Assembly (NCBI GenBank): GCA_040218735.1
Contig: JAVJQW010000070.1
Coordinates: 416,001 to 480,000 of the forward strand
Length of the DNA stretch: 64,000 nt
Direction of reading: 5' to 3'
DNA from: Deltaproteobacteria bacterium
Lineage (GTDB): Bacteria; Myxococcota; Kuafuiibacteriia; Kuafuiibacteriales; Kuafuiibacteriaceae
Part shown: piece after piece, positions 1 to 55,818 of the stretch
Layout of the letters: every line of letters begins with the position of its first letter
Position numbering within the stretch: the first letter of the stretch is position 1
Translations under genes and position numbers: made by a program
The notes under the pieces: model-generated
Told to the model about the DNA's origin: nothing
The model's input: the letters and a program-made list of their open reading frames with translations, nothing else
The model's database searches: none

Positions 1-335
1 TACTGCTTGTCGTCCTTCCAGATGACGTTGAAGCGCGGCTCGTAGCGCCGGATCATCTCGCGCTCGAGGAGCAGCGCCTCCTTCTCGTTGCGCGTGACGA
101 CGGTCTCGACGTCGGCGAGCAACACACCGAGCAGCCCGATGAACGCGCGGTAGTCGCTGGTGCCTTCTTGGAAGTATTGCCGGACGCGGCTGTGGAGGTC
201 CTTCGCCTTGCCGACGTAGATGACGTCGCCGGCGTCGTCCTTCATGAGGTACACGCCCGGCGAGTGCGGGAGCTCCTCGAGGCGTTCGAGCCACGCGGTG
301 CGCGCGGTGCGCGGCTTTCGGGTGCGGCTCGCCAC
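1..335 (-). CDS. uvrC: Excinuclease ABC subunit C, N-terminal GIY-YIG part (runs off the window start)
   Basis: Manual minus-strand translation from GTG at 335: MASRTRK...[34 protein letters not shown]...[28 protein letters not shown], the classic UvrC N-terminus. Not in the ORF track. Confidence 0.93.
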
Positions 336-388
336 GGCGGGCGATCATACCGATCGATCGCCCGCCGTCCCCGATGTTTATGCGGTGC

Positions 389-3343
389 TCACGGCGACCA
401 CTGGGCGGCGTGTTCGAAGCCGTTGGTGTTCGCCTGGGTCAGCGGAAACGGCGTCCCCGGTGCGCCGGTCACGGGATCGAGCGGGAGCAGGTAGAGGTCC
501 CAGCTCCCGAGGCCCCCGGGGCGCGTGCTGGCGAACGACAGGTGGGTCCCGTCCCGCGCCCACGTCGGGTACGAGCTCGCGCCGACGTTGCCGTTCGCCG
601 CGTCGAGGGTGAGGACCTCCCCGCTGTTGTCGGCGCGTACCAGACGAACGCGCGCGTCGGCCGCCGAGAACGAGCTCTCCCCGCTCGCGCTCTGCGTGAA
701 CGCGATCCACTGACCGTTCGGCGAGAACGCCGGATAGTAGTTCGCCTGTCCGTTGCTGCTCGCGCCCGCGAGCGCGGTGACCGCGCCGCCGTCCTCGGGG
801 ACCACGAAGAGGTTCGCCTGTCCGCTCACGACGGGGCCGCTGCCGCCGTCCGCGGAGACAAACGCGATCGTCCCGTCCGGGCCCCACGACGGCATCGTCG
901 CGTAGCCGACGTCGGCGGGCGTGACGGTGCCCAGCTCCCCTGTGAAGAGCGACGCCTTTTCGACGCCGCCACCCGTCGCGTAGACGAACTGGTACGGCGG
1001 GTCGGTCTCGACGTTCGGGTTCCAGGACACGTACTGGCCGTCGGAGAGTGACAGCGGCGCGAGGAACTCGGACTTCGTCTCCGCGTCGTAGAACTTCAGC
1101 ACCCAGCTCTGCGCGGTGATCGCGACGAAGCGCCCGTCGGGCGACACCGCGTGGCAGCCCGCGCAGTCCTCGTTGCCCGCCTCGGGCCCGGCGAACGGCT
1201 CCACCGTCAAGTCACCTTGCAATGGCTGGCGGCGGATGTTGCTCCCGATCCCCGCGGGGTCGATGTGCCAGAAGTACAGGAACCGCCCCGCGCTCGGCGG
1301 GACGATCGACGGGCCGCCCGTGACGCGTACGTCGATCGAGGGACGCACCGGGTCGTCCGACACGACCTCGATGATCGCGGTGTCCCCCGCGTTGTCGAGC
1401 GGCGCGTAGCGGACGTCGATCGTGTGGGTGTCTCCGGCGTCGAGCACGAGGGGCAGCGTCGGCGACGTGACGATCGAGATCTCCGGGTCGGCGCGCGTCC
1501 AGCTCAGCTGCGTGACCGTCACGGGGAACGAGCCACACGCGCGCAGCGTGAACGACTGCGTGGCCTCGGTCTGCACCTCGCCGAAGTCCACGTTCGTCGG
1601 CTCGATGCACAGGCCCGACGCGCCACCGAAGGCCGTCACGGGGACCTCGACCGGGTCCACGTCCTCGTCGGTCGACGTGACCACCACGGTGCCCATCGCG
1701 ATGCCCTCGGCGGTGGGTGAGAACCTCAGGCGGTACGGCGTGCTCCCGGCTTCGACCGTGAAGGCCGGATCGGAGCCTTCCTTCATCGTGATCGTGTCGA
1801 CACAGTCGACCGCTTCGAACCCGACGACGCGGGAGGTGCCCGGCGCGACGGCGCCGAACCGCAGCGACGACGGCTCCACCCTCAGCGTGCTGCACTCGAT
1901 CGGCTCGATCGGGCCGGTCGATCCCGTGATCGGGACGATCTTGTCGGTCAGCGTTGCGGTGGCGTCGTCGGCCGGTCGGTAGCTCAGCTTCAGGTCGGCG
2001 GTGACACCCTCGTCCATCGGAGCCGCGCCGAAGAAGACGTGCGCGAGGAGCGTGTCACCGGAGGCGAGCGTCTCCGGCACCCGATCCTCCTCCAGGAAGA
2101 ACGCGCCGTTCGGATCGTCGAGGGTGAGGGCGTCGATCGCGCAGGCCTCACCGCCGAGGTTGGAGAAGGTGACGGTACCGCGGCCATCGAAGATCGAGAT
2201 CGACAGCTGCGTCGGGAACGCCTCGATCTGGCAGCCCGCCGAAGTGCCGGTGAGGGGCGCGGTCGCGGTGCCCCGGTCGGCGCGGACGCGGAAGCGGCCG
2301 GTGGTCTCGCCCTCGAGCGTCGGTGCGTAGCGGATCTTCGCGGTGTACGCGATGCCTTCGATCGCCGGGAGGTCGACCGGCTCGGACGGCGCGTTGACGA
2401 CGCTGTACGGTCCACCTTCGCCGAGGATCTCCATCGCCTCGATGCGCACCGTCTCGCCGCCGGAGCCGCAGTTGGCGATCTCGATGGTCCCCTCGCGCTC
2501 CTGGCCGACGCCGACGTTGCCGAAGTCGAGGGTCTTCGGATTCAGGCACAGCCAGGCCTCCGCGCCGTTCCCCTCGATGGTGGTGGTCGTGGTGCCCCGG
2601 TCGGGATCGTTCGAGCTCACGACGAGCGCGCCGGTCGCAGCGAGCTGTTGCACGGGTGCGTAGCGCACGGTGACGACGTGCTGCGCGCCGACGGGGAGCG
2701 TGAAGGACGTCGAGGCGGTCTCGATCGTGAACGCACCATCGGTCGCGTCACTCAGCGCGAGCGCGCTGACCTGCACCGGGTCGGTGCCCTCGCTGCGTAG
2801 GACGATCTTCGCGGTCGAGGTCTCCTGAACGTTGACGTCGCCGAAGTCGAGCTCCGCCGGATCCGGGCAGCGGAGCGAAAGCGGGATGTCCTCGCTCTCG
2901 AGGCAGGTCACGAGGACGGGGCCCTGACGACGATCGCCGCGGACCTCGACGGTCACTTCGGGCGTCTCGGGGTCGTCGGAGACGATGCGCAGCGCGGCGG
3001 TGACCACGTCCAGCGACGACGGCGTGAACGCGACGACGAAGCGGGAGGCCTCGCCGGCCTCGATGACGTCCGGCATGGACTCGACGTCGACGAGCGTAAA
3101 GTCGCCGGATGGGTTCGCGGTCCAGTCGATCTGGGAGATGTCGAGGGCGAAGTCCCCCGCGTTGGTGACGGTGAGAATCCGTTCGGCGCGCACGCCGCGC
3201 GGAACGGTGTCGAAGACGACGGGGTTCGGTGTCACCTCGATCTTGGGCCGACGGGACGTGATCCCGGCGGAGTCCTGACAACTCACGAGCGCCAACAAGA
3301 CGAGCGGGGGGAGGAGCAAAGAGAGACGCTTTTGGTACGACAC
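389..3343 (-). CDS. Large lipoprotein with ~6 Ig-like (choice-of-anchor D / ASPM-Hydin-type) repeats and a C-terminal TolB-like (PD40) beta-propeller
   Basis: Lipobox LLALVSC after the likely GTG start at 3343. Repeated 'P..LDFG.V..G......I.N.G' and 'L.V.SDDP..P...V.V.G' motifs. C-terminal PSWGPDG / PAFSPNG / PTWARDG PD40 repeats, plus a CAGCH motif. Confidence 0.8.
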   Translation of the reverse strand: MSYQKRLSLLLPPLVLLALVSCQDSAGITSRRPKIEVTPNPVVFDTVPRGVRAERILTVTNAGDFALDISQIDWTANPSGDFTLVDVESMPDVIEAGEASRFVVAFTPSSLDVVTAALRIVSDDPETPEVTVEVRGDRRQGPVLVTCLESEDIPLSLRCPDPAELDFGDVNVQETSTAKIVLRSEGTDPVQVSALALSDATDGAFTIETASTSFTLPVGAQHVVTVRYAPVQQLAATGALVVSSNDPDRGTTTTTIEGNGAEAWLCLNPKTLDFGNVGVGQEREGTIEIANCGSGGETVRIEAMEILGEGGPYSVVNAPSEPVDLPAIEGIAYTAKIRYAPTLEGETTGRFRVRADRGTATAPLTGTSAGCQIEAFPTQLSISIFDGRGTVTFSNLGGEACAIDALTLDDPNGAFFLEEDRVPETLASGDTLLAHVFFGAAPMDEGVTADLKLSYRPADDATATLTDKIVPITGSTGPIEPIECSTLRVEPSSLRFGAVAPGTSRVVGFEAVDCVDTITMKEGSDPAFTVEAGSTPYRLRFSPTAEGIAMGTVVVTSTDEDVDPVEVPVTAFGGASGLCIEPTNVDFGEVQTEATQSFTLRACGSFPVTVTQLSWTRADPEISIVTSPTLPLVLDAGDTHTIDVRYAPLDNAGDTAIIEVVSDDPVRPSIDVRVTGGPSIVPPSAGRFLYFWHIDPAGIGSNIRRQPLQGDLTVEPFAGPEAGNEDCAGCHAVSPDGRFVAITAQSWVLKFYDAETKSEFLAPLSLSDGQYVSWNPNVETDPPYQFVYATGGGVEKASLFTGELGTVTPADVGYATMPSWGPDGTIAFVSADGGSGPVVSGQANLFVVPEDGGAVTALAGASSNGQANYYPAFSPNGQWIAFTQSASGESSFSAADARVRLVRADNSGEVLTLDAANGNVGASSYPTWARDGTHLSFASTRPGGLGSWDLYLLPLDPVTGAPGTPFPLTQANTNGFEHAAQWSP

Positions 3344-7275: not shown

Positions 7276-9338
7276 CCGCTCCGACGTCCACCACCCCGGC
7301 GCGAGCCCTTCTTCTTCTTCGGCGCGATCAGCGTGGGCGCACCGACCCCGAGGTCGGCGCTCTCGATCGCGCGCACCCGATCACGAAGCTCCGCCGCGGT
7401 CTCGAAGTCGAGCTCCTTCGCGGCATTCATCATCTGCTTCTTCAGGTCCTTGATGACCTTGGGCAACTCCGCCTTGTCGTAGACCTTCCCGTCGATCTCG
7501 ATCTCACCGTCGTCGCCGAACACCGTCAGCTCCGTCCTGAAGCCGGCGAGCTGCCGCAGATCGCGGATCTGCTTCTTCACCGTCTGCGGCGTGATGTTGT
7601 GCTCGACGTTGTACGCCTCCTGCTTTTCCCGCCGACGGTTCGTCTCGTCGATCGCCGCGCGCATCGACTCCGTGATCGTGTCCGCGAACATGATCACCTT
7701 GCCGTTCACGTTGCGCGCGGCGCGGCCGATCGTCTGGATGAGCGACTTCTCTGCGCGGAGGAAGCCCTCCTTGTCCGCATCGAGGATCGCGACGAGCGAC
7801 ACCTCCGGGAGGTCGAGCCCCTCACGCAGCAGGTTGATGCCCACGAGGACGTCGAACGTACCGAGCCGCAGGTCACGCAGGATGTCGGCGCGCTCCATCG
7901 TGTCGACGTCGGAGTGGAGGTACTGCACCCGAACGCCGAGGTCCGCGTAGTACTCCGTCAGGTCCTCTGCCATGCGCTTGGTGAGCACCGTGACGAGCAC
8001 GCGCTCGTTCTTCTTCGCGCGGACGCGGATCTCTTCGAGCAGCTCGTCGACCTGGTGCCCCGCGGGGCGCACCTCGATCTCGGGATCGAGCAGCCCCGTC
8101 GGCCGGATGATCTGCTCGACGAACACCCCCTCGGTGCGCTCCAGCTCGTAGTCCGCCGGCGTCGCGGAGACGTAGACGACCTGTTTCAGCCGCTGCTCGA
8201 ACTCCGGGAACTTCAGCGGCCGGTTGTCGCGCGCCGAGGGGAGCCGGAAGCCGAACTCCACGAGGGTGTCCTTGCGCGCGCGGTCGCCGCGGAACATCGC
8301 GCCGACCTGCGGGACCGTCTGGTGGCTCTCGTCGATCACCATCAGGAAGTCCTCGGGGAAGTAGTCGAGGAGCGTCGGCGGCGGCTCGCCCTCTTTGCGG
8401 AGCGACAGGTGCCGCGAGTAGTTCTCGATGCCCTTCACCATCCCGACGGTCTCGAGCATCTCCAGGTCGTAGATCGTGCGTTGCTCGAGCCGCTGCGCTT
8501 CGACGAGCTTCGAGTCCCCCTCGAGCTCCTGCAGGCGGAACCGCAGCTCCTCTTCGATCGACTTCAGCGCGAGCGCGCGCCGCTCCGGCGGCGTGACGTA
8601 GTGGCTCGCGGGGAACATACGGATCTTCTCGAGGTCCCGGATGGCCCGCCCGCGCAGCGGGTCGACCTCGCGGATGGCCTCGAGCTCGTCGCCGAACCAC
8701 TCGAAGCGCAGCGCGTGTTCGTCCTCGTAGACCGGGAACACCTCGACGACGTCGCCGCGCACGCGGAACATGCCGCGGGCGAAGTCCATGTCGTTGCGTT
8801 CGTACTGCAGCTCGACGAGGCGGCGCAGGACGTCGTCGCGTTCGATGGACTGCCCGGGCTCGAGGTCGAGCGTCATGCCCTCGTACACCTCGGACGCGCC
8901 GATGCCGTAGATGCAGCTCACGGACGCGACGACGAGGACATCGTTGCGCTCGAGGAGCGACCGCGTGGCCGAGTGGCGCATGCGATCGATCTCGTCGTTG
9001 ATGAGCGAATCCTTCTCGATGTACGTGTCCGTCGTCGGGACGTACGCCTCGGGCTGGTAGTAGTCGTAGTAGCTGACGAAGTACTCGATGGCGTTGTTCG
9101 GGAAGAGCTCCTTGAACTCCCCGTACAGCTGCGCGGCCAACGTCTTGTTGTGGACGAGCACCAGCGTCGGGCGCTGCACCTGCTCCACGACGTTCGCGAT
9201 CGTGAACGTCTTGCCGGTGCCGGTCGCGCCGAGGAGCAGCTGGTGTTTGTCGCCGTTTTCGAGGCCCGCGACGAGCTGACGGATCGCTTCGGGCTGGTCC
9301 CCCATCGGGGACAGCTCGGTGACGAGCTCGAACTTCAC
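7263..9338 (-). CDS. uvrB: Excinuclease ABC subunit B
   Basis: [59 protein letters not shown]-terminal UVR domain. Start placed at GTG 9338 to avoid overlap with the upstream gene. Confidence 0.97.
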
Positions 9339-44584: not shown

Positions 44585-47500
44585 GTGCGCGTCGGATCCA
44601 GACCACTCGAGACGCTCCGTACGGGCGACGACGATCCCGCGACACCGCGCGCCGCGGAACCGCTGCGTCTCCCCGACGCGCCCCGCACGACCGGCGCGGC
44701 GAAGTCGAACACGAAGCCGCGCTCCACGAGCGGGGTCGCCGCGTTCATGACGAATGCGCTGCGGCGCTTCGACAAGGCGGCCGCCGCGGTGATGATCGGC
44801 GCCCTGCCGCTCCCCGCGCTCGCGGGCGGACCGCTCCTCGCGGAGGACCACGCCCGGTTCGATCCCGAGGTCCGCATCGAGGCCCACGTCCTGCCGTGGC
44901 GCGCCGCGGGGGGCCTTGCCGGATCGGTCGACGCGCGCGACGTGTTCCAGGCGCACCTCACGGATCGCCTGCGCGACATCGAGGCCCAGCGCGCGCAGTT
45001 CCTCGCGACCGCGCCGCCCGACCCGGTGGTGCGGACGGATCTGCTGCGCCTGTCGGAGGTCGTGCGGCGCTTCGATCGAATGGTCGACGGCGCCCGGCTC
45101 CCCCCGAACCTCCTCGCCGACATGGACCGTGTCCTCGACGCGATCGAGGCGGCCCGGCCGGGGGTCTACACGCCGGCGATCGATCTCGCGTTGCTCGACC
45201 TTCCCTCGGTGTCGCGCGTCGAGGTCGGTGCACCGACGATCCCCGCGGCCGACCTGACCGCGATCCTCGACGCCTCGCCGACCGACCTCCCCGACCAGAT
45301 GGCGGCGGTCCTCGCCAGTTACTCGGCGATCATGTCGAACGCCGACGCTGCGCTGAACGTGCTGCCGGGCTTCACGTACGTCAGCCCCGTCCCGCTGTTC
45401 TACGACTCGGGCGATGGTGTGCTGCTCGTCCCGCCCGGCGCGACGGTCGAGAGCCAAAACGGTCAGTTCTCGATCCACGCGCCGCAGATGTTCTGGCGGC
45501 AGGACGGTCTGCTCGTCGCCGCCGAAGAAGGCACCGTCCACCTCGGTTCCGAGCTCGACGGCCTCACCGCGAGCACCGCCTCCGCGCAGGGGGACGACTG
45601 GTCCGCGGTCACCGAGGACTTCGTCGCCGGCGTGCGACGCGACGACGGCTACGGCGTGATCGCCGCGCGGCGCATGGACCTCGATTTAGCGTCCGGCTCG
45701 GCGCACCTCGAAGACGCCGAGCTCGTCGTGGCCGACACCGGCGACGCGGAGCTGTTCGCCGGGGCGCTCGACTTCTCGGCCGGCAACCGAACGCTCTCGG
45801 CCGACACCCTCACCGCGACGCAGACCCGCGACGGGACGACGGCGTCCGCGGCGCACATCGCGTTCGGCGACGGCGTCACTTCGATCTCGGGTTCCGCGGT
45901 CGACCTCCACTTCGGACCGAACGGCGCGACGCTGAGCGGCGAACGGCTCGACATCACGAACGGCACGACCCGCGGCACGCTCGAAGGCGCTCGGGCGTCG
46001 CTCCGTCCGACCGACGACGGGCACGACCTCGCGTTCGTCGCGGACCGCGCCCACTTCGAGGACGGCGTTCAGACGATCGATCTGTCGGGCGCCGACGCAA
46101 ACGCGAGCTTCGACGCCGACGGCCACCTCACCGCGCTCGATGGTCGGGCGAGCAGCACGAACGTCACCACGGGCGCCGGCGCGTTCATCGGCACCAACGG
46201 CGCGATCGCGGCGCGCTTCGACCGGGGCACCCTCACCGCGATCGACGCGAGCACCGCGACCGGTCAGTGGACCGGGACGGACGGGACCGTCGTCGCCGCG
46301 AGCGACGCGGGCCTCGCCCTCGCCTTCGATGACGGTCGCCTCCGCCAGGCGACGCTCGCGTCCGGTGCGCTCCACGTCGTGCAGGGCGACCACGACGCCG
46401 CCCTCCAGGGCCTCGACCTGAACGTCGCGTTCGACGAAGCGGGTCACCTCGACGAGGCCACCGGCCGCGCCGCGCGCCTCGACTACCGAAACACCGACGG
46501 CACCCTCGTCGGCGCGGGCGACGTTCGGTTGAACGTCGACGCGACCGGCGGCGTGCTGGATCGTGTGCAGCTCGCGGCCGGGCAGCTCGACTACCAACGC
46601 GGAGCGGAGTCCCTCGCGGTCACGAACGGCACCCTGGTCCTCGACGCGGAGGGCGGTCGTGTGACCCACGCCGTCGCGACGTTCGACGCCGCGACCTACG
46701 AGGCCGGCTTCGGGCGCCTCGCACTCGCGGGGACGTCGCTGTCGATCGACTACACCGACGACGGCACGACCTTCCACGGCTTCGCCGAGCACCTCGACCT
46801 CGCGAACGACGGCGGGCGCCTCCTCGTCGACGGCGGCGCGGTGAACGGCTCGCTCCGCCCGGACGGTACGCTGGAGGCGTTGGGTCTGTCCGGCGACCAC
46901 CTCGCGTACACGGGCACGACCGAGGGCGACCACCCGCTCGTCGTCGACCTCGCGAGCCCGTCCGCCGTGCTCACCGCGCTCGACGGCGGCGGGCAGCGGC
47001 TCGACTTCACGACCGGCGCCGGTCACTTCGAGGTCGACGGTCACCGGGTCGCGCTCGAAGGCCTCGAACTGCTCACGCTCACCACCACCCCCGACGGCGA
47101 GGTCGACACCTTCGCGGCGGACTTCGACGGGCAGCTCGACTTCGTCCAGCGCGGCGGCGACCTCACCGTCCTCACACGTGACGTCGAGACGACCTACGAC
47201 CGTGCGACCTCCACGCTCACGCTGGACTTCGCGGAGGCCGACGTCGCCCTCCGCAGCGCGGGGCTGCAGGCCCGCATCGAGGGGGCGCACGGCGAGCTCG
47301 ACGATTCGCGCGTCTTCATCTCCGTCGACCGCGCCGAGGTGCTCCGCGATCTCGGCGAGCAGCTGAACGTCGAGGTCGAGTCCCTCACCGTCGAAGCCAC
47401 GCGCACCGCGACGGGCGCGCTGCAGACGCTCGACCTGTCGCTCGCGAGCCTCGACGCCGACATCGCCGGCATCCACGCGATCGTCCGGACGCCGGACGGG

Positions 47501-48775
47501 GAGCGCCTGCGGCTGCACATCGGCACCGACGAGAGCGGCCAGACGGTGCAGCACGCCTACCTCCTCATCCCGGAGGGCGGCGAGGTGCGGCTCACGCAGG
47601 ACGACGACAGCGTTCGGCTCGGCGGCCAGCTCATCAGCTACACCCTCGGCGACGATGGCATCTACCGCCTCCGCGGCGAGAGCCTCGACCTCGAAGCGAG
47701 GACGAAGGACTTCGGCGTGCGGGTCGAGGGCGGCGACGCGCAGGTCTCGCTCGACCCCGCGACGGGGCGGCTCACGATCGACGAGATCACCGGCACCCGC
47801 ATCGACGTGAATCACGACGATCTCGCGTTCACGATCGACGTCGAAGCGATGAACGACTTCATGGTCCGCGCGACGCGCCTGAGCGGCGGCGCCACGGGCC
47901 TCGCCTTCCACCTCGAGCCCACCCGCGACGGCTCGAGCCTGACCGCGTTCACCACGGGCGAGGTCGGCGGGCTCCCGTTCACGCTGGGCTTCTCGAACGT
48001 GCACGAGCTGGAGGGGCTCGGCGCCATCTCCGAGAACCAAGTGCATGCCTACTTGCGCGACCCGAGCGGGCGCGGCCACATCGAGCTCGGCTTCGGGCCG
48101 CTCGAGATGTCGGGGTCCGCGCTGGAGTTCGTGGGGCGTTACCACCCCTACGACGCCGGGCGAATGCTCGAGACGGTGCAGCGCTACACGACGCTCGCCG
48201 GCACCGAGGTGTTCAGCGGCCTCTCCTTCGACCACGACGGCGTGGTCCGCCTCGGCACCGACCGCGAGGGCCTCAACGCCGAGCTCGCCGTGGTCCTCCC
48301 GCGCCAGTACGCCCTCCCCGGCTACCGCTTCGCGGTCACGGACCAACCGGCCGCGGCGCCGGGCGTGATCGGCAGCGTCGGCTGGCGCCACGAGGACTTC
48401 ACGTTCAGCGTCTTCGGCGGCCTCGTCCCCGGCGCACACGCGACCGGCTACGTGAAGGAAGGCGACGCGTCGTTGTTCGGCGTCGGCGTCCCGGACCGCT
48501 TCGACCTCCCCGCCACCGTCATCGGCGGCGGCCGCGTCGACCTGGGCAACTTCGCGAACGGCGACCTGTCCGTCGTCGCCGGCGGCTACTACAACCCTGC
48601 GAGCGCCGTCGACAGCCCGTTCCTCAACGAGCCCACGGCCTTCGGCGCCTTCGGCGGCCTCGAGTACCGCGACGACGACGGCTGGTTCGTCAACGGCAGC
48701 GCCGTCGCGGACTTCGACCGAGGCGGCACGGTCCAGGGCGGCGCCGTGATGCTGATGCTCGGCGCGAAGTTCTGA
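44585..48775 (+). CDS. Large hypothetical beta-strand-repeat protein (1396 aa)
   Basis: Open frame with host-like codon usage, quasi-repeats 'FD..G.L......G.L.Y', C-terminal aromatic ending LGAKF. Start uncertain. Confidence 0.72.
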   Translation: MRVGSRPLETLRTGDDDPATPRAAEPLRLPDAPRTTGAAKSNTKPRSTSGVAAFMTNALRRFDKAAAAVMIGALPLPALAGGPLLAEDHARFDPEVRIEAHVLPWRAAGGLAGSVDARDVFQAHLTDRLRDIEAQRAQFLATAPPDPVVRTDLLRLSEVVRRFDRMVDGARLPPNLLADMDRVLDAIEAARPGVYTPAIDLALLDLPSVSRVEVGAPTIPAADLTAILDASPTDLPDQMAAVLASYSAIMSNADAALNVLPGFTYVSPVPLFYDSGDGVLLVPPGATVESQNGQFSIHAPQMFWRQDGLLVAAEEGTVHLGSELDGLTASTASAQGDDWSAVTEDFVAGVRRDDGYGVIAARRMDLDLASGSAHLEDAELVVADTGDAELFAGALDFSAGNRTLSADTLTATQTRDGTTASAAHIAFGDGVTSISGSAVDLHFGPNGATLSGERLDITNGTTRGTLEGARASLRPTDDGHDLAFVADRAHFEDGVQTIDLSGADANASFDADGHLTALDGRASSTNVTTGAGAFIGTNGAIAARFDRGTLTAIDASTATGQWTGTDGTVVAASDAGLALAFDDGRLRQATLASGALHVVQGDHDAALQGLDLNVAFDEAGHLDEATGRAARLDYRNTDGTLVGAGDVRLNVDATGGVLDRVQLAAGQLDYQRGAESLAVTNGTLVLDAEGGRVTHAVATFDAATYEAGFGRLALAGTSLSIDYTDDGTTFHGFAEHLDLANDGGRLLVDGGAVNGSLRPDGTLEALGLSGDHLAYTGTTEGDHPLVVDLASPSAVLTALDGGGQRLDFTTGAGHFEVDGHRVALEGLELLTLTTTPDGEVDTFAADFDGQLDFVQRGGDLTVLTRDVETTYDRATSTLTLDFAEADVALRSAGLQARIEGAHGELDDSRVFISVDRAEVLRDLGEQLNVEVESLTVEATRTATGALQTLDLSLASLDADIAGIHAIVRTPDGERLRLHIGTDESGQTVQHAYLLIPEGGEVRLTQDDDSVRLGGQLISYTLGDDGIYRLRGESLDLEARTKDFGVRVEGGDAQVSLDPATGRLTIDEITGTRIDVNHDDLAFTIDVEAMNDFMVRATRLSGGATGLAFHLEPTRDGSSLTAFTTGEVGGLPFTLGFSNVHELEGLGAISENQVHAYLRDPSGRGHIELGFGPLEMSGSALEFVGRYHPYDAGRMLETVQRYTTLAGTEVFSGLSFDHDGVVRLGTDREGLNAELAVVLPRQYALPGYRFAVTDQPAAAPGVIGSVGWRHEDFTFSVFGGLVPGAHATGYVKEGDASLFGVGVPDRFDLPATVIGGGRVDLGNFANGDLSVVAGGYYNPASAVDSPFLNEPTAFGAFGGLEYRDDDGWFVNGSAVADFDRGGTVQGGAVMLMLGAKF

Positions 48776-48799
48776 ACGGCTCGGGACGCCGCGTGAGGT

Positions 48800-50113
48800 C
48801 TACGCCGCTCCCTCCAACGCGCTGATGATCTCGGCGGTCCACGAAATTGCTTCGCCCCGACTGCGACGGGACTCCTCGAGCAGTTCGAGGTTTCGCGCGG
48901 TCGACTCTGGCTCCCACGGTTCACGCACGAGGCTCAAGGCTCGCTTTAGAGCCTCGCGCGCCCCCGCCTCATCCCCGCCGATAATGGCCAGCTCGAGCAT
49001 CGTCGCAAAGTCCCAGTAGTCCTCGCGCCCCGACGCAATTCTGCGTGCTGCGGCATATCGAACGACTGGCAGGAGTCGTCCTCGGTCGGGAACCCCTGCG
49101 ATCTCCATGAGCGTGAGCGCGTTGATCCCCGGGTAGGCATCACGCCAGTCAGACTCGAATCCGAGCGTGTACGCCTCGATGGCCCGATGCAGATAAGCCG
49201 ACGACGACGGTGTCCCGCGTGCGTCGGCCCATCGGTCCTTGAGCACGCGCCCGAGCAGTCCACACGATTCGCTACTCGGACCTCGCTCCGCGATGATTGC
49301 CCGGAGGATCCTCTCGGCGTCCTCGCCGTGCCCCATTCGGTTGAGGGCAAGCGCCCGCTGCTCGCGCACTAGAGTCGTTGCTTCGAGGTGAGTGGGCATC
49401 TCATCGCAGAGCGCGACCATCTCTGACCAGCCGCGGACAGCACGAAACGACAGCAGAAGGTCCACAAGCACTGCGGTCGACACCGCAGCTACGGAGCCGT
49501 GCGTCGTGATCAGACCTGCCCGAACTGCTGCGACCGACTCGAGCTTCATCGTACGGCGCGCGTCGGCCAACTGCTCCTTGACCTCGACCGCGTACACGAC
49601 GAGATCGCGAAACGCGTCAGTCTTGAGGCGCTCGATCGGAGCAGGCGGCGGGGCGTCCAACAAGTCTACGAGGGCACGGTCTGAAGCGCCTCCGTCAGAA
49701 CGCGTCATCGCCTTGGCCAAGCTCCCCACAAGAGAGCCGTCGGACGCCGGAACACCCGATGCTCCGAGCTCATATCGAAGGACTGGCCATCCAAATCCAT
49801 CGCCTTCGACACGTGTGCCTTCCGCGGCGATGACCGTCGTTTCTCTCCAGCGGAGGGCGTGTCGGACTCCAAGCGCGTAGTACGCATCCGGCGCAGCCAA
49901 GGAGAGATCCACGATTAGGTGCCCGGCCAAGAGGACCGCCTCGAGGTCGGACCCGTGAATCGAAGTCAGGCGGTAGAGCTCGAAGCCGCCCTGCGTCGCG
50001 GCGGGTCTCAGCAGGTTCTCGTATACGCCATCCATGTCAATGTGGCGGCCTACTGCGTCTTGTCGAATCCCGGTGGGAACGAGCGCACAGCACAGACGAC
50101 GAACGTCAGTCAT
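48800..50113 (-). CDS. DUF4071 / MAP3K TRAFs-binding-domain TPR protein with an N-terminal deoxyribosyltransferase-like domain
   Basis: ID.D.VY..L.RPA, IVDLS, YYALGVRHA, then LLSFRAV..W.EMV.L, EQRALALNR, SSE.CGLLGRV.KD.W, AIEAY..GF, YPGINA.TL, DYWD.AT.LE, WE.ESTARNL. Confidence 0.85.
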   Translation of the reverse strand: MTDVRRLCCALVPTGIRQDAVGRHIDMDGVYENLLRPAATQGGFELYRLTSIHGSDLEAVLLAGHLIVDLSLAAPDAYYALGVRHALRWRETTVIAAEGTRVEGDGFGWPVLRYELGASGVPASDGSLVGSLAKAMTRSDGGASDRALVDLLDAPPPAPIERLKTDAFRDLVVYAVEVKEQLADARRTMKLESVAAVRAGLITTHGSVAAVSTAVLVDLLLSFRAVRGWSEMVALCDEMPTHLEATTLVREQRALALNRMGHGEDAERILRAIIAERGPSSESCGLLGRVLKDRWADARGTPSSSAYLHRAIEAYTLGFESDWRDAYPGINALTLMEIAGVPDRGRLLPVVRYAAARRIASGREDYWDFATMLELAIIGGDEAGAREALKRALSLVREPWEPESTARNLELLEESRRSRGEAISWTAEIISALEGAA

Positions 50114-52886
50114 GGAACGGGACGTCCACCGACGAAAAGAGTCGTTCGCGAGTCGGGTACTGGCCAATCAACAACGGCGTTGCCCATCCGGGGCTGTCCA
50201 AAGACTGACTGCGGCGGGCAACCATCAGCGCCCGCCCCGCATCGAAGTCTGTCTTGACGAGCTCCTCGTAGAAATCCGAAGCAAGTCGCGGTGCGACGTC
50301 ATCCGCGATCGGCCATACGTGCGCGACGACCTCCGTGACACCTCCCTCAACCAGATCAGAGGCAAGCGTTTGAACGCCCACGCGTTCGTCTGTAGAGATA
50401 TCAGGAAGCGCACTCGTGCATACATTCAGGAAAACGAACCTCACATCGTGACCGCTGACCCACCGGCGTAGGTCGGCTCCGTAAACTCGTCCCTTCGGAT
50501 CGTCGGTAGGATTCAGCTGAAGGTAGGGGACCCCACTCTCGAACCCAGCGTGACCAGCGAAATGAACCATCTGGAACTGGTTTTCTCGAAGCTGATTCTC
50601 TAGCTCATCTGGCGTCGCCGTCATGGCCGATAGGACCCGCACATTGGATACCGGCCATCCGAGGACCTCGAATCGAGCCGCTAGAATGTCTCGGACTTCC
50701 GCCAGCTCGTCATCGACATTCGGAAGCCCAGGCGCCCGCGAGCCCACAACGAGAACACGCGGAGGCGGCATCTCGCCTCTGGCGAGCGCTTCGTCTATCG
50801 GGAGTGGAAAGGAATCGATGCTCAGGTCGGTGAGGTAGCGTCGGACCGGACGCCGACGTCCGAGCGGGTCACCTGCACCACTCATATGCATCCATTCCCA
50901 CGGCATCGATAGGCTCTTTCGATCCCCGCGAATGCAGAGCCTTGCGTTCGACTCGATGAGCGGAGTGCAGCCGTCCTCGTCCGTCCTCTGTTCGCTCGCG
51001 AGCAGAGCGCCTGTCTTCCACGTCACATCGCGCCACTTCGCGCTGTCACCCGCGAGCGGTACGACCATCTCGAACACCTTCTGAACGGGACCCGTGGCGG
51101 GTTCCCATTGGCTCTCACTCGTTGAAGCAAACCTCGCCCATCGTACAAAGCTCTGAAGATTCGGATAGAGGCGCTCTCGCGTGAGAATCTTACGTAACCA
51201 TTGTCGGTCCTTGTCATGACTCACATATCGTAGCGCCGCCGAAAGCAGAGCCGCGAGTGCCGCATTACCCGCCGCATCGACCTCGGCCAGCGAAATCAGG
51301 GTGGGGAGCAAGTTCTTCGCGTCGACATCCTCGACTTCCTTGAGCAGCCGATCGACCTCATCCGGCGCCAAGCGGGCGTCGCCCTCCACAATTCGTCTCA
51401 GATCGTTCGTGTCGCTCAGTTGCGGCTCGACGAGCTCACGTATCCGCGTCGCGCTCGCCTCGTCGATCGGTCGCGGAGCGTCCTTTCCAAGGATCGATGT
51501 CACGTGCTCCACAACCGCGGGGGACTTGGCTTTCTCGAGCTCGAAATAGCGGTCGACGGTCAAGAAGTCCGGCAGTCGCCTCCGATCGCTCCCATTGAAG
51601 ATGAGAAATCGTAACTCGCGACGGGTCCACTTCTCGACGGCGAGCTCGAGCTCCAATCGGCAGAACTCGCTCTCCCAATAGTCGTCATCGATGATTGCGA
51701 GAAACAAACTCGCAGCGCCGACCTCCTTCTTGAGGTTCTCGATGAGCTCCCCCGTCTTCTGATTGCTCTCCTCCATGTACTGGAAGCAGGGGAAGCCAGC
51801 GGCCTTCAATCCCGTTGCGATCGCCACGGCGCGATCGTTCTGGCTATTGGCATTGCTCACGAAGACGCGTCTGCCGCCAATGCTGAGCAGGTACTCGATA
51901 ACGTCCTTGACGTAATGGAGGTCGCGCCCCCGATCTTGGTGTTCTTTGAGCTTGTCTACAATGTAGTCAGCGACGCTGCCTTGGTCAGCGTCACTCCAGA
52001 AGTGCACCGGCTCCATTCTTTCATCGAGTTGGTATCCCGCCAGGAGAGGAGGCGCACTTCGCGCCGCGGCGGCCTCGCTCAACAGGAGCCCAAGTCGCTG
52101 TCGCGCCTGATTTTCATCTTCGTCCGGACTCAGCCGGCAAATGCGAAGGCACGCAACGGATGAAGCATGAATGAGCGCAAGGATGTGTTCCGGAGTGGAA
52201 TCGGACCCGAAGTCAGCGACAACGACATCGATGGACTCCATACGTCCCAGGACCTCGATATCGAGATTCGAGCTTTGGCCACTGAGCTCGAATCGATCGA
52301 CTTTGAAGAAGTCGCCGTTCTTCTTCTTTCCGCGTAGCTCCACTTCCCGGCGAACCGCCTCGAGAGGGCTGCTCGTGTCTGTCAGAAGGAAGGCCGGAGC
52401 GGACTCGTGCTGGGCCGGACGAACGTGCTCCCGAGCTCGACTGACGAAGCTGGAGATCTGACGATCGATGGTGGAGGGGTCGCCGTGGTCGGCGAAGTCA
52501 TTCGATTCTCGATCGAAGTACAACATGCGCGTTCGATCGGAGCCGACAAGCGGCCCCGCTGGAATGCGGTTCTCCGCTATAATCAGTCGGGGCTTGCGAG
52601 ACCGAATCGCGAGGCCGTACTCGAAGGCTTGGTACGGCGACCAAGCCGGCGTGTCTACAGTTGACCGGTCGGGAACAATCGCGACGAAACCACCAGTACG
52701 TCGCATCATGTGTTCGAGGAAGGTCACGTCCATGGGAGCTTCATTGCCGTTCCACTTGCCGCCATCGACGGTGAAGTGAATTCCGTGGTCAGCGAGCCGG
52801 CGAAGCAGCGCCATCTGGATGCGCCTGTCTCCCGGACGATAGCTATGGCTTAGGTAGACAAGGACCTTACTGGTATCCGCTGTCAT
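50106..52886 (-). CDS. Multi-TIR-like domain + helical domain + CHAT (caspase-like) protease fusion
   Basis: VYLSHS...SPYQAFEYGLA (TIR-like), VFVSNA...YWESEFCRLELELA (TIR), MPWE, LPNVDDEL, VHFAGH, FVFLNVC.S, WPIAD..A...A..FY, W (CHAT). Confidence 0.85.
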   Translation of the reverse strand: MTADTSKVLVYLSHSYRPGDRRIQMALLRRLADHGIHFTVDGGKWNGNEAPMDVTFLEHMMRRTGGFVAIVPDRSTVDTPAWSPYQAFEYGLAIRSRKPRLIIAENRIPAGPLVGSDRTRMLYFDRESNDFADHGDPSTIDRQISSFVSRAREHVRPAQHESAPAFLLTDTSSPLEAVRREVELRGKKKNGDFFKVDRFELSGQSSNLDIEVLGRMESIDVVVADFGSDSTPEHILALIHASSVACLRICRLSPDEDENQARQRLGLLLSEAAAARSAPPLLAGYQLDERMEPVHFWSDADQGSVADYIVDKLKEHQDRGRDLHYVKDVIEYLLSIGGRRVFVSNANSQNDRAVAIATGLKAAGFPCFQYMEESNQKTGELIENLKKEVGAASLFLAIIDDDYWESEFCRLELELAVEKWTRRELRFLIFNGSDRRRLPDFLTVDRYFELEKAKSPAVVEHVTSILGKDAPRPIDEASATRIRELVEPQLSDTNDLRRIVEGDARLAPDEVDRLLKEVEDVDAKNLLPTLISLAEVDAAGNAALAALLSAALRYVSHDKDRQWLRKILTRERLYPNLQSFVRWARFASTSESQWEPATGPVQKVFEMVVPLAGDSAKWRDVTWKTGALLASEQRTDEDGCTPLIESNARLCIRGDRKSLSMPWEWMHMSGAGDPLGRRRPVRRYLTDLSIDSFPLPIDEALARGEMPPPRVLVVGSRAPGLPNVDDELAEVRDILAARFEVLGWPVSNVRVLSAMTATPDELENQLRENQFQMVHFAGHAGFESGVPYLQLNPTDDPKGRVYGADLRRWVSGHDVRFVFLNVCTSALPDISTDERVGVQTLASDLVEGGVTEVVAHVWPIADDVAPRLASDFYEELVKTDFDAGRALMVARRSQSLDSPGWATPLLIGQYPTRERLFSSVDVPFHD

Positions 52887-52899
52887 CGAGCACCAGAGG

Positions 52900-53457
52900 T
52901 CAGACGTTCCCGATACGCCAGCGGCCGTTTTCACTCTGTTCCAGCAGCGTCACTTCAGAGGGCGCCGCCCGGCTCTTTCGAAGAAGGCCTTCCAGGATGT
53001 TCCGGACCTCGTCCTGCGTGAGCTCGCGCTGCCCCGAGATCGCCGCAGCAAGCTCCACCACGGTCTGGCCCGGTTTGCCGAGCGTCTTGGCGCGCTTGAG
53101 AGCCCGCAAGACCAATACCTCGTCACCGTTCACTTCGACCTTCAACTGCTGGTAGCGAAGGAACAGCGTGACCAATCCCGGCAGTGCGGCAGCAGGGCTG
53201 GTGATGAAGAAACTTAGTGATGAAGCGACGATGGACTCGACCAGCTTCAACGACGCATCGGGCACTGCGAAGTGCCTGTCCTTCGAGAAAAGGTCTGCAT
53301 CGAGCCGCCGTTGCTCGGCCTGCGGATGGTGATGAATGATGACGTCAATGGCCGCTTCTTGGATGACGGCGGCGCGTCGTTCACCCTTCAATGACTCATC
53401 GAGTCGGCGGTCCAGCTCGAGACGAACCTCATCGAGCGTGTATTCCTTGACTGTCAT
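52900..53457 (-). CDS. Hypothetical protein (central hydrophobic segment, possible C-terminal winged helix)
   Basis: Strong SD AGGAGGAGG before ATG 53457. First gene of the island operon. Confidence 0.7.
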   Translation of the reverse strand: MTVKEYTLDEVRLELDRRLDESLKGERRAAVIQEAAIDVIIHHHPQAEQRRLDADLFSKDRHFAVPDASLKLVESIVASSLSFFITSPAAALPGLVTLFLRYQQLKVEVNGDEVLVLRALKRAKTLGKPGQTVVELAAAISGQRELTQDEVRNILEGLLRKSRAAPSEVTLLEQSENGRWRIGNV

Positions 53458-53545
53458 TGGCCCTCCTCCTGCTTGCGACTGCACCGTAGGTCTCCCCAGA
53501 GAAACGGTCAACGTGGCGGAAGGACTCCAAGTCAGCGTTTGGGGG

Positions 53546-54724
53546 TCACGGCGACGGGACGTCGTCCATGCGCTCCGACGCGAGCTGTGCGGCGTGTTTC
53601 ATGAGCGCCGGGAAGTCGCGCGCCACCGTCTGGAACTCGTCGGCCGCGAGCGTGAGGAGCAGGCACTTCTTCGAGGCCACGACCGACGCCGTCGCCGGGA
53701 GGCCGGTCATCACGGAGATCTCGCCGAAGAGCGAGCCCGAGCCGAGCTCGGCGACGATCTCTTCGTTGCGGCGGATCTCGACCTCGCCGTGGATCAGGAT
53801 GAACAGCCCCGCCGCGGTGGTGCCCTGCGAGATCAGGCTCGCGCCCTTCTTTACGTTGGTCGGGTGGAAGCGTTTGCCGAGCGCCGCGCGCTCCTCCTCC
53901 GAGAGCGCGTCGAACGGCTTCGCCTTGCGCAGCACGTTTGCGATCAGGCGCTCGCCGAACACCCGCAGGACCTCCGACAGGATCGACGGGTCCTCCTGGA
54001 TGAGGCGCGTGAGCACCTCCAGCCTCAGCTCCAACAGCTGCGACGGCATCGTGGTCCGCACCGTCGCGCCGCGCTTCGCGCCGTCCTTGCCGCGCGCGAA
54101 GAGCGACATCTCGCCGAAGAACTCACCCGAGCCGAGCTTCGCCACCGGCGGCGCGTCGACCTCCAGCAGCACCTCGACCTCACCTTCGGCCACCACGTAC
54201 ATCGAGGACGCGGCGTCCCCCTTCTCGAACACGACCTCGCCCGCCGGGAGCTCGTGCAGCGTCGAGCTCTCCAGCAGCTCCTCGAACGCGGCCGGGCCGA
54301 GGCTCGAGAACAGCGCGATCGGCGGGAGGATGCTCACGCTGATCTGCAGGTCCTCCGACTCCGGCTCGGACGGGGGCGGCGCGTCCGTCACCGGCACCGC
54401 GGGCGCCGGCAGCTCACCGCTGTTGAGCGCTTCGATGACCGCCTTGGTGTGCGGGTTGTTCTTGTCGAGCGCGAGGGCGAGCTTCGCCATCGCGATCCCC
54501 TTCATCGGCACACCGGACTGCGCAAACGCGAGCGCCGCGCGGCAGAGGCCCTGGATGCGCCCGGGGCGATCCTTCTTCGCGCGACAGACCTCCGCGATCC
54601 GGCTCGGCCAGGTGGGGTCCGTCGGCTCGCGGCGTTCGAGATCCTCGTAGCGTCGGATCGCTTCGTCGTGATCACCCCGGTCGAAGGCCGCCTCGGCCAC
54701 CGCGATCATCTCGGCGCGCGTCAT
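53546..54724 (-). CDS. TPR + tandem cyclic-nucleotide-binding domain protein
   Basis: Two cNMP domains (FFGEMSL...RGATV; LFGEIS...PATASV) after a helical N-terminus. Confidence 0.85.
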   Translation of the reverse strand: MTRAEMIAVAEAAFDRGDHDEAIRRYEDLERREPTDPTWPSRIAEVCRAKKDRPGRIQGLCRAALAFAQSGVPMKGIAMAKLALALDKNNPHTKAVIEALNSGELPAPAVPVTDAPPPSEPESEDLQISVSILPPIALFSSLGPAAFEELLESSTLHELPAGEVVFEKGDAASSMYVVAEGEVEVLLEVDAPPVAKLGSGEFFGEMSLFARGKDGAKRGATVRTTMPSQLLELRLEVLTRLIQEDPSILSEVLRVFGERLIANVLRKAKPFDALSEEERAALGKRFHPTNVKKGASLISQGTTAAGLFILIHGEVEIRRNEEIVAELGSGSLFGEISVMTGLPATASVVASKKCLLLTLAADEFQTVARDFPALMKHAAQLASERMDDVPSP

Positions 54725-55818
54725 CAATCGACGATCTTCAACATCTTGCGCGGCGCGTCCACCTCCGCGCCGAGCTGACCGCACGCCGCGCTGATATCGT
54801 CACCGCGCGGGGTCCGCACGAACACCGGGACGCCCGAGTCCGACACGATCCGCTGGAACGCGTCGATGCGCTCCTGAGGCGGCCGCTTGAACGGACTGTA
54901 GGGGTGCTCGTTGAAAGGGATCACGTTCACTTTGGCCGGTATCCCGCGGAGCAGCTTCACCAATCGGCGCGCGTCGTCATCCGAGTCGTTCTCGTCCGCG
55001 AGCAGCACGTACTCGAACGTGATCCGCTGCCGGTGTTTCATCGGGAACTTCCGACACGCGTCGAGCACCGCCTCGATGTTGTACTTCTTGTTGATCGGCA
55101 TGATCCGATCGCGCACCGCGTCGGTCGTCGCGTTCAGCGACACCGCGAGGTTCACGGCCACGTCGTTCCCCAGCCGCGGGATCCGAGGCGCCAGCCCCGA
55201 GGTGCTCACCGTGATCCGCCGCGCCGAGATGTTGTGGCACTCCTCGGAGGAGATCATCTGCAGCGCCGACACGACGTTCGCGTAGTTCTGCAGCGGCTCG
55301 CCCATCCCCATCATCACGATGTTCTGGATCGGCGGCCCCGCTTCGGGATCCACGAGCGTCCCGAGGTCCTCTTTGACCCGGGTGATCTGCTCCGCGATCT
55401 CGTGCGCCTCGAGGTTCCGCAGCAACCCGAGCGACGCCGTCAGACAGAACTTGCAGTCGATCGCACACCCCACCTGCGAGGAGATGCACAGGGTGTTGCG
55501 CCCCTCCGCCGAGGCGTCCGGGATGAACACCGCCTCCACGACGTCGCCCTTCTTCGTCTTCAGGGCGTACTTCCGCGTCCCGTCCGCGGCCTTTTCGACG
55601 CGGGCGATCGACATCGCGCCCACGAACGCACGGTCCGTGAGCTTCTCGCGGAGCTTCTTGGAGAGGTCGGTCATCTGCGCAACGTCGGTGACGCCGCGCC
55701 GGTGGATCCACCGGTAGATCTGCCCCGCCCGATACTTGGGCTCACCGAGCTCCGCGAGGAGCGCCTCGAGCCCGGCGCGATCGAGCGCGGCCAGATCGGT
55801 TTTGGTGGAGTCGCTCAA
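54724..55818 (-). CDS. rlmN: Dual-specificity RNA methyltransferase RlmN
   Basis: CISSQVGCAIDCKFC radical-SAM motif, MGMGEP, SLNA, AACGQL. Confidence 0.95.
   Translation of the reverse strand: MSDSTKTDLAALDRAGLEALLAELGEPKYRAGQIYRWIHRRGVTDVAQMTDLSKKLREKLTDRAFVGAMSIARVEKAADGTRKYALKTKKGDVVEAVFIPDASAEGRNTLCISSQVGCAIDCKFCLTASLGLLRNLEAHEIAEQITRVKEDLGTLVDPEAGPPIQNIVMMGMGEPLQNYANVVSALQMISSEECHNISARRITVSTSGLAPRIPRLGNDVAVNLAVSLNATTDAVRDRIMPINKKYNIEAVLDACRKFPMKHRQRITFEYVLLADENDSDDDARRLVKLLRGIPAKVNVIPFNEHPYSPFKRPPQERIDAFQRIVSDSGVPVFVRTPRGDDISAACGQLGAEVDAPRKMLKIVD

Follow-up and report, generated by a model that had tools for sequence, protein, structure and literature searches.

A predicted conflict protein with a three-domain TIR-type head, an EAD8-like linker and a CHAT protease in a deltaproteobacterial genome

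TIR domains and caspase-fold proteases are two enzyme types common to bacterial, plant and animal immunity. To our knowledge, how the chemistry of the first is coupled to activation of the second is understood in one bacterial system only, type IV Thoeris. The present report concerns a gene found at positions 50106–52886 of a 64,000 nucleotide (nt) stretch of DNA, here termed the window, from a member of the Deltaproteobacteria (contig JAVJQW010000070.1, positions 416,001–480,000), whose predicted product of 926 amino acids (aa) carries TIR-type domains and a CHAT protease on one chain. Type IV Thoeris (the TIR protein ThsB and the caspase-like ThsE) consists of two separate small proteins linked by the diffusible signal N7-cyclic ADP-ribose (N7-cADPR), which is sensed by a C-terminal domain of the protease (Rousset et al., bioRxiv 10.1101/2024.10.24.620036; Science 2025). 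Pairs of a TIR protein and a "CMP hydrolase-TPR" protein defend by way of canonical cADPR, and in type VIII Thoeris the TPR of the latter protein, ThsI, is presumed to perceive this molecule (bioRxiv 10.64898/2025.12.03.692087). In a comparable pair BcTir binds BcTpr, and both NAD+ depletion and defence depend on two residues, N82 and E86, in the MilB-like domain of BcTpr (bioRxiv 10.1101/2023.05.26.542521). Effector-associated domains (EADs) have been proposed to serve as homotypic adaptors between effectors and core components, much as CARD does for caspases (eLife 2020;9:e52696). TIR-plus-caspase defence and EAD-coupled effectors are already known.

The 926 aa protein probably belongs to a family of multi-domain conflict proteins not yet described, with a putative anti-phage or abortive-infection role. 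A sequence-only reading of this DNA had proposed that one polypeptide carries up to three TIR or Rossmannoid domains and an intact CHAT protease. Pfam, AlphaFold2 and residue conservation bear this out: the chain displays three domains of the flavodoxin-like/TIR superfamily (D1, D2 and D3), of which D2 qualifies only generically, and an intact CHAT dyad. The features are as follows, in window positions.

50106..52886, minus strand: main gene, 926 aa from the ATG at 52886; order D1, D2, TIR, EAD8-like linker, CHAT
52428..52877, minus strand: D1, residues 20–169; divergent TIR or nucleoside deoxyribosyltransferase (NDT)-like domain
51927..52406, minus strand: D2, residues 177–336; five-stranded Rossmannoid domain packed on D1, without a catalytic Glu
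51597..51866, minus strand: D3, TIR_2 (PF13676), residues 357–446; Glu428 at 51651–51653
51180..51455, minus strand: helical linker, residues 494–585; divergent EAD8 (effector-associated adaptor) domain
50208..50945, minus strand: CHAT (PF12770), clan CD caspase-fold protease, residues 664–909; His795 at 50550–50552, Cys839 at 50418–50420

The longest open reading frame (ORF), 50106..52934 on the minus strand, has a translated sequence of 942 aa when counted from the first GTG (52934). The ATG at 52886 appears to be the better start, because relatives starting at their own residues 2–20 align from query residue 2–10 in the full-database search. All ten motifs quoted in the sequence-only reading are present in the frame 50106–52886 and the codons it named are exact, i.e. 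GAG at 51651–51653 for Glu428, CAC at 50550–50552 for His795 and TGC at 50418–50420 for Cys839. Its domain spans hold approximately: D2 had been placed at ~52400–52000 and the modelled fold is at 52406–51927, while D3 had been placed at ~51875–51480 and the Pfam match is at 51866–51597.

The protein resembles type IV Thoeris in that a TIR domain with a catalytic Glu is joined to a clan CD protease with a catalytic Cys, and abortive infection would be the expected outcome here as well. It differs in being a single chain with three TIR-type domains and an EAD8-like adaptor, and no recognisable sensor domain. The protease is CHAT and not Peptidase_C14, and the layout of a separate short TIR gene with ThsE was not encountered.

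D3 is a canonical TIR domain, as had been claimed. It scores 42.3 bits against the Pfam TIR_2 model (cut-off 28), and the equivalent of Glu428 is found in 94 of the 96 relatives that reach this column. The CHAT domain scores 81.7 bits (cut-off 24). His791, His795 and Cys839 are invariant in the alignment of 20/20 CHAT-type relatives, so that both residues of the dyad named earlier are present and conserved; His795 and Cys839 are presumably the catalytic pair, since clan CD proteases show this arrangement of H-x-G and hydrophobic-strand-Cys. CHAT under a fused regulatory module is also seen in the SAVED-CHAT and TPR-CHAT (Csx29) proteins of type III CRISPR, and the PADLOC SAVED_CHAT model gives a weak match to the CHAT part (E 6.9e-5). 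Here, however, there is no SAVED domain, no fused TPR and no CRISPR context, and the TPR is located on a separate neighbouring protein. PADLOC gave three weak domain-level matches in all (E 6e-5 to 2e-3), none of them to a Thoeris model.

An AlphaFold2 model, built from an alignment of 142 relatives, covers residues 17–350 only and has a predicted local distance difference test score (pLDDT) of 89.4 and a predicted template modelling score (pTM) of 0.90. It displays two five-stranded beta-alpha-beta domains (D1 20–169, D2 177–336) which are modelled as a single rigid unit, and the flavodoxin-like character proposed for domains 1 and 2 is compatible with both. A single-sequence model of the whole protein reached a pLDDT of 42 and was discarded. 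With the two-domain model, Foldseek searches of the PDB returned generic two-domain Rossmann proteins (template modelling score 0.2–0.3), and structure searches were made per domain instead.

D1 displays the signature Y27-x-S-H30-S-Y-R, D57, E74, R90, S99-P-Y and E105, with the Glu105 codon at 52620–52622. Glu105 is present in 143/143 relatives, which agrees with the claim that domain 1 keeps its Glu; His30 is found in 141/141, Ser99 in 142/143, Glu74 in 141/143 and Asp57 in 140/143. D1, and not D3, is thus the best-conserved domain. The modelled fold is flavodoxin-like with five strands and matches solved TIR and NDT structures. Alignment of D1 with D3, a true TIR, by hhalign gives a probability of 74%–81% (E 1–3e-5) and extends from strand 1 to strand 4, with Glu105 placed on Glu428; in the controls (D1 or D3 with the linker or CHAT) the probability is ≤5%. 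The query D1 shows no Pfam match even at E 10, including TIR_2, TIR, ThsB_TIR, DUF4062 and Nuc_deoxyrib_tr. Among 27 D1-only relatives, three have sub-threshold TIR_2 matches, the best at E 0.0021, and a D1 profile gave zero matches to PDB sequences. D1 differs from the DUF4062/NIR TIR-like NADases in being unmatched by DUF4062 or TIR Pfam models. On its sequence features D1 is probably enzymatic, a putative N-glycosidase whose invariant Glu occupies the catalytic position. If catalytic, it would represent a new branch of the NAD-processing repertoire, covered by no curated model.

D2 presents a different picture. The query domain has no Pfam match even at E 10, there is no conserved Glu (Glu249 is found in 12 of 111 relatives), and alignment of D2 with D1 or D3 by hhalign gives a probability of ≤3.7%. 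The top structural matches are nearly equal, i.e. the EngA G-domain (10.3), LacI-type domains (10.2) and the RPS4/RRS1 TIR (10.0). As modelled, D2 is a Rossmannoid three-layer sandwich for which TIR merely ties among the best matches. It has conserved marks of its own, Pro261 (112/114, Ala here) and Trp313 (103/109). The earlier description of D2 as a degenerate TIR or deoxyribosyltransferase-type domain lacking Glu was right about the Glu; in fold D2 is generically Rossmannoid and may or may not be related to TIR in particular.

The extent of the family was determined by a HMMER full-database search with query residues 17–350, which gave 170 cluster representatives at E ≤0.001, and 149 relatives were scanned with Pfam at thresholds of 1e-3 and 1e-5. 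TIR_2 follows the head in 95/149, typically starting at residue 300–370; of the relatives that exceed 360 aa, 97 in number, all except two carry it. There are 54 relatives without any Pfam match, which save for two are ≤355 aa in length; many of these are likely fragments. Behind the TIR are found CHAT (20 relatives), PNP_UDP_1 (25), a second TIR (5), Trypsin_2 (2), Peptidase_C14 (1) and an nSTAND1-type NTPase (2, in relatives P0065 and P0107). Some relatives end after the TIR at ~450 aa with no further domain. Comparison of these architectures shows that D1-D2-TIR is a constant head with swappable C-terminal enzymes. Exchangeable tails on one head are the look expected of a regulatory or signalling head that drives any output. 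Apart from the main protein, a word-indexed homologue search returned one TIR-CHAT-NB-ARC protein, which is unrelated.

The same vocabulary (TIR, PNPase, trypsin, caspase/CHAT and EAD8) is found in the EAD-coupled effectors of NTP-dependent conflict systems, where exchangeable effectors are also placed on a constant scaffold with a logic like that of CARD and caspase; there, however, the constant scaffold is an NTPase or vWA core, and here it is the D1-D2-TIR head (Kaur, Burroughs, Iyer and Aravind, eLife 2020, 2021).

A mechanism can be proposed in which a trigger would cause the head to self-associate, as TIR domains do. The assembled head would cleave or rearrange NAD+ at Glu105 and/or Glu428, and the same assembly, together with homotypic EAD8 contacts, would bring CHAT domains together and switch on proteolysis. 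The cell would lose NAD+ and suffer protein cleavage simultaneously, i.e. the protein would act as an abortive-infection device. The chances of this assembly model as a whole are judged to be about even.

The sequence-only reading had proposed instead a circuit in cis, a fused version of type IV Thoeris in which a TIR-type domain makes a cADPR-type signal, D2 (or D1), being inactive, serves to bind this signal, and CHAT is thereby opened allosterically. The constant head with exchangeable outputs is consistent with such a circuit, and so is D2, which is non-catalytic yet conserved at Pro261 and Trp313 and is packed rigidly on D1 in the model; the activation of a caspase-like protease by a TIR product has its precedent in type IV Thoeris (bioRxiv 10.1101/2024.10.24.620036). 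Searches for a sensor speak otherwise. SLOG, Macro, SAVED, STING and the ThsE C-terminal domain were not detected in the main protein by Pfam or PADLOC, and the absence of a cyclic-nucleotide sensor domain also separates it from TIR-STING and TIR-SAVED proteins. Neither structure search nor hhalign links D2 specifically to a ligand-binding family, and nothing found marks it as a ligand sensor. Furthermore, a design purely in cis has no obvious step at which infection is sensed, and in relatives SLOG or NrtR functions come from separate genes, as does TPR-S in the locus here, which suggests sensing in trans. The cis circuit is considered possible but unlikely. Wiring and sensing in cis are in any case not the whole story, since the partner gene, the EAD8-type linker and the TPR-S gene described below belong to the picture too.

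In the assembly model the linker would help as an adaptor. The linker is below the Pfam EAD8 (PF19961) cut-off, at 13.5–16.5 bits against 27. A sister clade has a homologous linker (96.5% probability by hhalign, E 7e-10), in which one of five aligned rows (P0017) is above the cut-off, and for this reason the linker of the main protein is read as a divergent EAD8 adaptor. The cut-off is passed at 30–38 bits by P0017, P0018, P0020 and ORFs in two metagenome loci, L012 and L013. An EAD8-like linker is also what would be expected of a stand-alone dual effector, recruited through EAD8 by a STAND NTPase or a MoxR-vWA-type sensor encoded elsewhere, with the head as a composite NADase warhead. EAD8 is listed among effector-recruiting adaptors, and in P0065 and P0107 the head is fused directly to an nSTAND1-type NTPase. 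However, the 96%-complete genome yielded neither a further EAD8 (PF19961) nor a linker paralogue, in a search that misses even the query linker, and the cassette looks self-contained and mobile. Recruitment by a distant sensor is regarded as highly unlikely.

The main gene is the middle one of three tightly coupled genes, and their surroundings are given below.

48774..53566, no strand assigned: three-gene cassette, a ~4.8-kb insertion between conserved flanks
52900..53457, minus strand: upstream partner gene, 185 aa from the ATG at 53457, with a strong AGGAGG just before it; uncharacterised family
48800..50113, minus strand: downstream gene, 437 aa from the ATG at 50113; DUF4071/ThsI/BcTpr-like, overlapping the end of the main gene by 8 nt
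49583–50113, minus strand: N-domain of the downstream protein, MilB/NDT-like glycosidase domain with catalytic residues lost (Ala92, Asp94, Ala98 at 49874–49876)
48839–49579, minus strand: TPR-S domain of the downstream protein, conserved
53546–54784, minus strand: gene for a cyclic nucleotide (cNMP)-binding protein, host-type, with a GC content at third codon positions (GC3) of 0.92; TPR N-terminus and two cyclic-nucleotide-binding domains; 86% identity in a same-genus genome (G001)
44585–48775, plus strand: 1396 aa ORF, signal-like at its N-terminus and containing long repeats rich in Gly/Asp/Thr; its end is 25 nt away from the cassette

The downstream protein displays MAP3K_TRAF_bd (126.7 bits) and TPR-S (85.5 bits) matches in Pfam and has 3027 relatives. 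TPR-S domains are related to the N-terminal region of ASK1. In 119 relatives the glycosidase motif is A-N-x-N-V-F-Y-E-L-G, with Glu in 116/119; here it reads A-A-P-D-A-Y-Y-A-L-G. Thus both Asn residues and the Glu are gone, with Ala92, Asp94 and Ala98 at the positions of BcTpr N80, N82 and E86. Further marks of the N-domain are lost, and the TPR-S half is well kept. The protein most likely binds or senses a TIR-derived ADP-ribose signal without acting as an enzyme, as its residues suggest. In its two closest relatives, P0157 and P0158, the Glu is likewise replaced, by His and Ala respectively, and enzyme-dead TPR-S proteins may form a small subfamily. A dead-glycosidase TPR-S protein is a natural separation-of-function variant with which TPR-S ligands could be probed. 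Other TPR-S matches in this genome are on contigs C20 and C23, that on C23 within an ordinary TPR lipoprotein-like ORF.

As in type VIII Thoeris and BcTir-BcTpr, a TIR-bearing gene here adjoins one for a DUF4071 protein (MilB/NDT-like plus TPR-S). The differences are that the ThsI-like protein has Ala/Asp/Ala in place of N80/N82/E86 and so lacks the residues of a competent glycosidase, and that the TIR partner is a 926 aa tri-TIR-CHAT protein, a pairing not seen in the other examined members of either family. The locus may nonetheless be considered as a rewired type VIII Thoeris, in which the main protein would be a ThsB-like signal maker and the glycosidase-dead receptor would relay the signal to CHAT, or buffer it. 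An 8 nt overlap and an atypical GC3 connect the two genes; the TPR-S part is conserved while the catalytic N/N/E is lost, here and in respect of the Glu in P0157 and P0158; and the cADPR-dependent TIR and "CMP hydrolase-TPR" pairs (bioRxiv 10.64898/2025.12.03.692087) and BcTir-BcTpr binding (bioRxiv 10.1101/2023.05.26.542521) provide precedents. Against this, a TPR-S gene is found in 0 of 23 related loci (0 tblastn matches; 0/87 ORFs in a Pfam scan). Among 400 other genomes of the same phylum, 7 contain ThsI-like loci, eight in all, and in these neither a D1-type head nor a homologue of the small partner is present. The pairing of main gene and TPR-S gene has thus been seen once, and a decaying gene would equally explain a dead enzyme. 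This reading is judged distinctly unlikely.

A broader conjecture, of about the same low probability, is that the locus encodes an undescribed rewired Thoeris-type circuit. The tri-TIR head would make, or make and then modify, an ADP-ribose-derived signal at two distinct Glu-centred sites, in D1 and D3, the ThsI-like protein would be a pure TPR-S receptor, and either the complex of receptor and signal or EAD8 assembly would license CHAT. D1-D2-TIR would then be a new universal signalling head, and with D1 the TIR/NDT superfamily would gain a further catalytic branch. If this is true, a universal head could drive proteases, phosphorylases or further TIRs.

The upstream partner gene stops 13 nt ahead of the main ATG. 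Its product has zero matches in Pfam, NCBIfam and PADLOC. A homologue lies directly before the main-gene homologue in 7/20 testable metagenome loci, i.e. those of the 23 loci that have ≥860 nt upstream; six of these (L005, L006, L007, L009, L014 and L026) were found by tblastn and one, L010, by profile (E 3e-17). The C-terminus of this family is invariant, W-x-I-G-N-V in the alignment, the L010 member matches HTH_32/HTH_33 (E 4–7e-6), and weak structural leads from the Atlas are to winged helix-turn-helix (wHTH) regulators. The C-terminal half thus looks like a winged helix, and the protein is most likely an operon regulator or an antitoxin-like brake. A word-indexed homologue search with the partner returned only itself, and a profile of its family gave nothing below E 0.38 among PDB sequences. 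An adaptor common to the partner and the main protein was considered and rejected, since hhalign alignments of the partner with the linker, CHAT and the head are not significant. A predicted complex of the partner with main protein residues 335–926, a construct that excludes D1-D2, scored 0.00 and is evidence neither way. In L010 (845–1183, plus strand) a RyR-domain gene and a gene for an ECF-type sigma factor precede the partner homologue. Phage RyR-domain proteins are reportedly tied to degradation of ADP-ribose signals, going by the title of a 2026 preprint.

The three genes constitute a horizontally acquired unit at a variable spot. This is concluded from the low GC3, the absence of the cassette between conserved flanks in G001, and the lack of a full-length relative in 60 related genomes. 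The GC content of the cassette is 0.60–0.64 and its GC3 is 0.68–0.73 (0.68 in the main gene), compared with a GC3 of 0.92–0.97 in the adjacent cNMP-binding, rlmN and ndk genes. The genes are coupled by the 13 nt gap and the 8 nt overlap. In G001 the flanks align at 84% and 77% identity and 1.4 kb is found in place of the cassette, with an unrelated 460 aa ORF that has a lipoprotein-like signal peptide (L033:6453–7835, minus strand). What lies between the genes for the cNMP-binding and the 1396 aa protein is thus variable in this comparison. The cNMP-binding gene lies outside of the insertion, as its conservation at 86% identity in the same genus indicates. Concerning marks of a mobile element, no tRNA was found in the 40–60 kb part of the window. 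Promoter and terminator scans of the locus were at chance level. A search of sequencing runs found the sequence only in the probable source sample and listed no RNA run that contains it.

An acquired gene set may also be decaying or non-functional and without a present role. The copy here is an outlier at near-invariant sites, e.g. Asn40 is replaced by Gln and Pro261 by Ala, and the neighbour has lost its catalytic residues. Decay does not fit well, however, with three ORFs that are intact over 4.7 kb and have overlapping or close-coupled starts and a strong ribosome-binding site, nor with retention of the putative catalytic residues of D1, D3 and CHAT. It is considered very improbable.

Several observations weigh against the view of the protein as a member of a conflict family acting by assembly. 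For every family member the activity, trigger, order of events and defence role are predictions. PADLOC assigns no defence system to the locus, and the flanking genes (rlmN, ndk and that for the cNMP-binding protein) are of the housekeeping type and not those of a defence island. A full-length relative is absent from the 60 related genomes searched, and in a scan of GTDB representative genomes 27 stretches matched and 0 were confirmed; the family is accordingly rare, and nearly all of its known members come from metagenomes. D2 is indistinguishable from other Rossmannoid folds by structure search, and the search for a second EAD8 or linker paralogue in this genome, limited as stated above, gave none. 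The absence of a ThsI-like neighbour from all 23 related loci implies that its role is specific to this locus. Moreover, the deviations at near-invariant family sites, i.e. Asn40 to Gln (the sole case in 141), Trp44 to Leu and Pro261 to Ala, suggest that the copy here may be drifting.

In the literature search, which covered accessible texts, no description was found of the D1-D2-TIR head, of the signature domain D1, of the family of small partners or of a pairing with a ThsI-like protein that is inactivated; supplementary architecture tables, which lay outside of that search, may list such architectures. With a protease, or another effector, on one chain with three TIR-type domains, the family provides a compact and genetically tractable test of whether TIR chemistry is coupled to protease activation by a small molecule, by assembly, or by both.

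The 23 related loci came from a scan of metagenome contigs, and their neighbouring genes include candidate sensors. Sensing of ADP-ribose or nucleotides is a known trait of both the NUDIX/NrtR-like and the SLOG families. Divergent NrtR-like NUDIX-wHTH genes are found upstream in L016 (547–1272, minus strand), L017 (5038–5862, minus strand) and L021 (3949–4671, minus strand). L016 and L021 are of the PNP type; the main ORF of L017 was left out of the type scan. The NrtR-like genes hint at ADP-ribose-responsive transcriptional control of that branch. In L012 a SLOG (LSDAT_prok) gene (1264–2250, plus strand) lies directly upstream of an EAD8-CHAT-type member and is a candidate nucleotide-signal sensor of that clade. 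A distant relative in L022 (4729–5538, plus strand; 64–2904, plus strand; 7829–9238, minus strand), with D1 only by similarity, is found amid PLD-like, helicase-C and PRiA4_ORF3-like genes, a setting that resembles a defence island.

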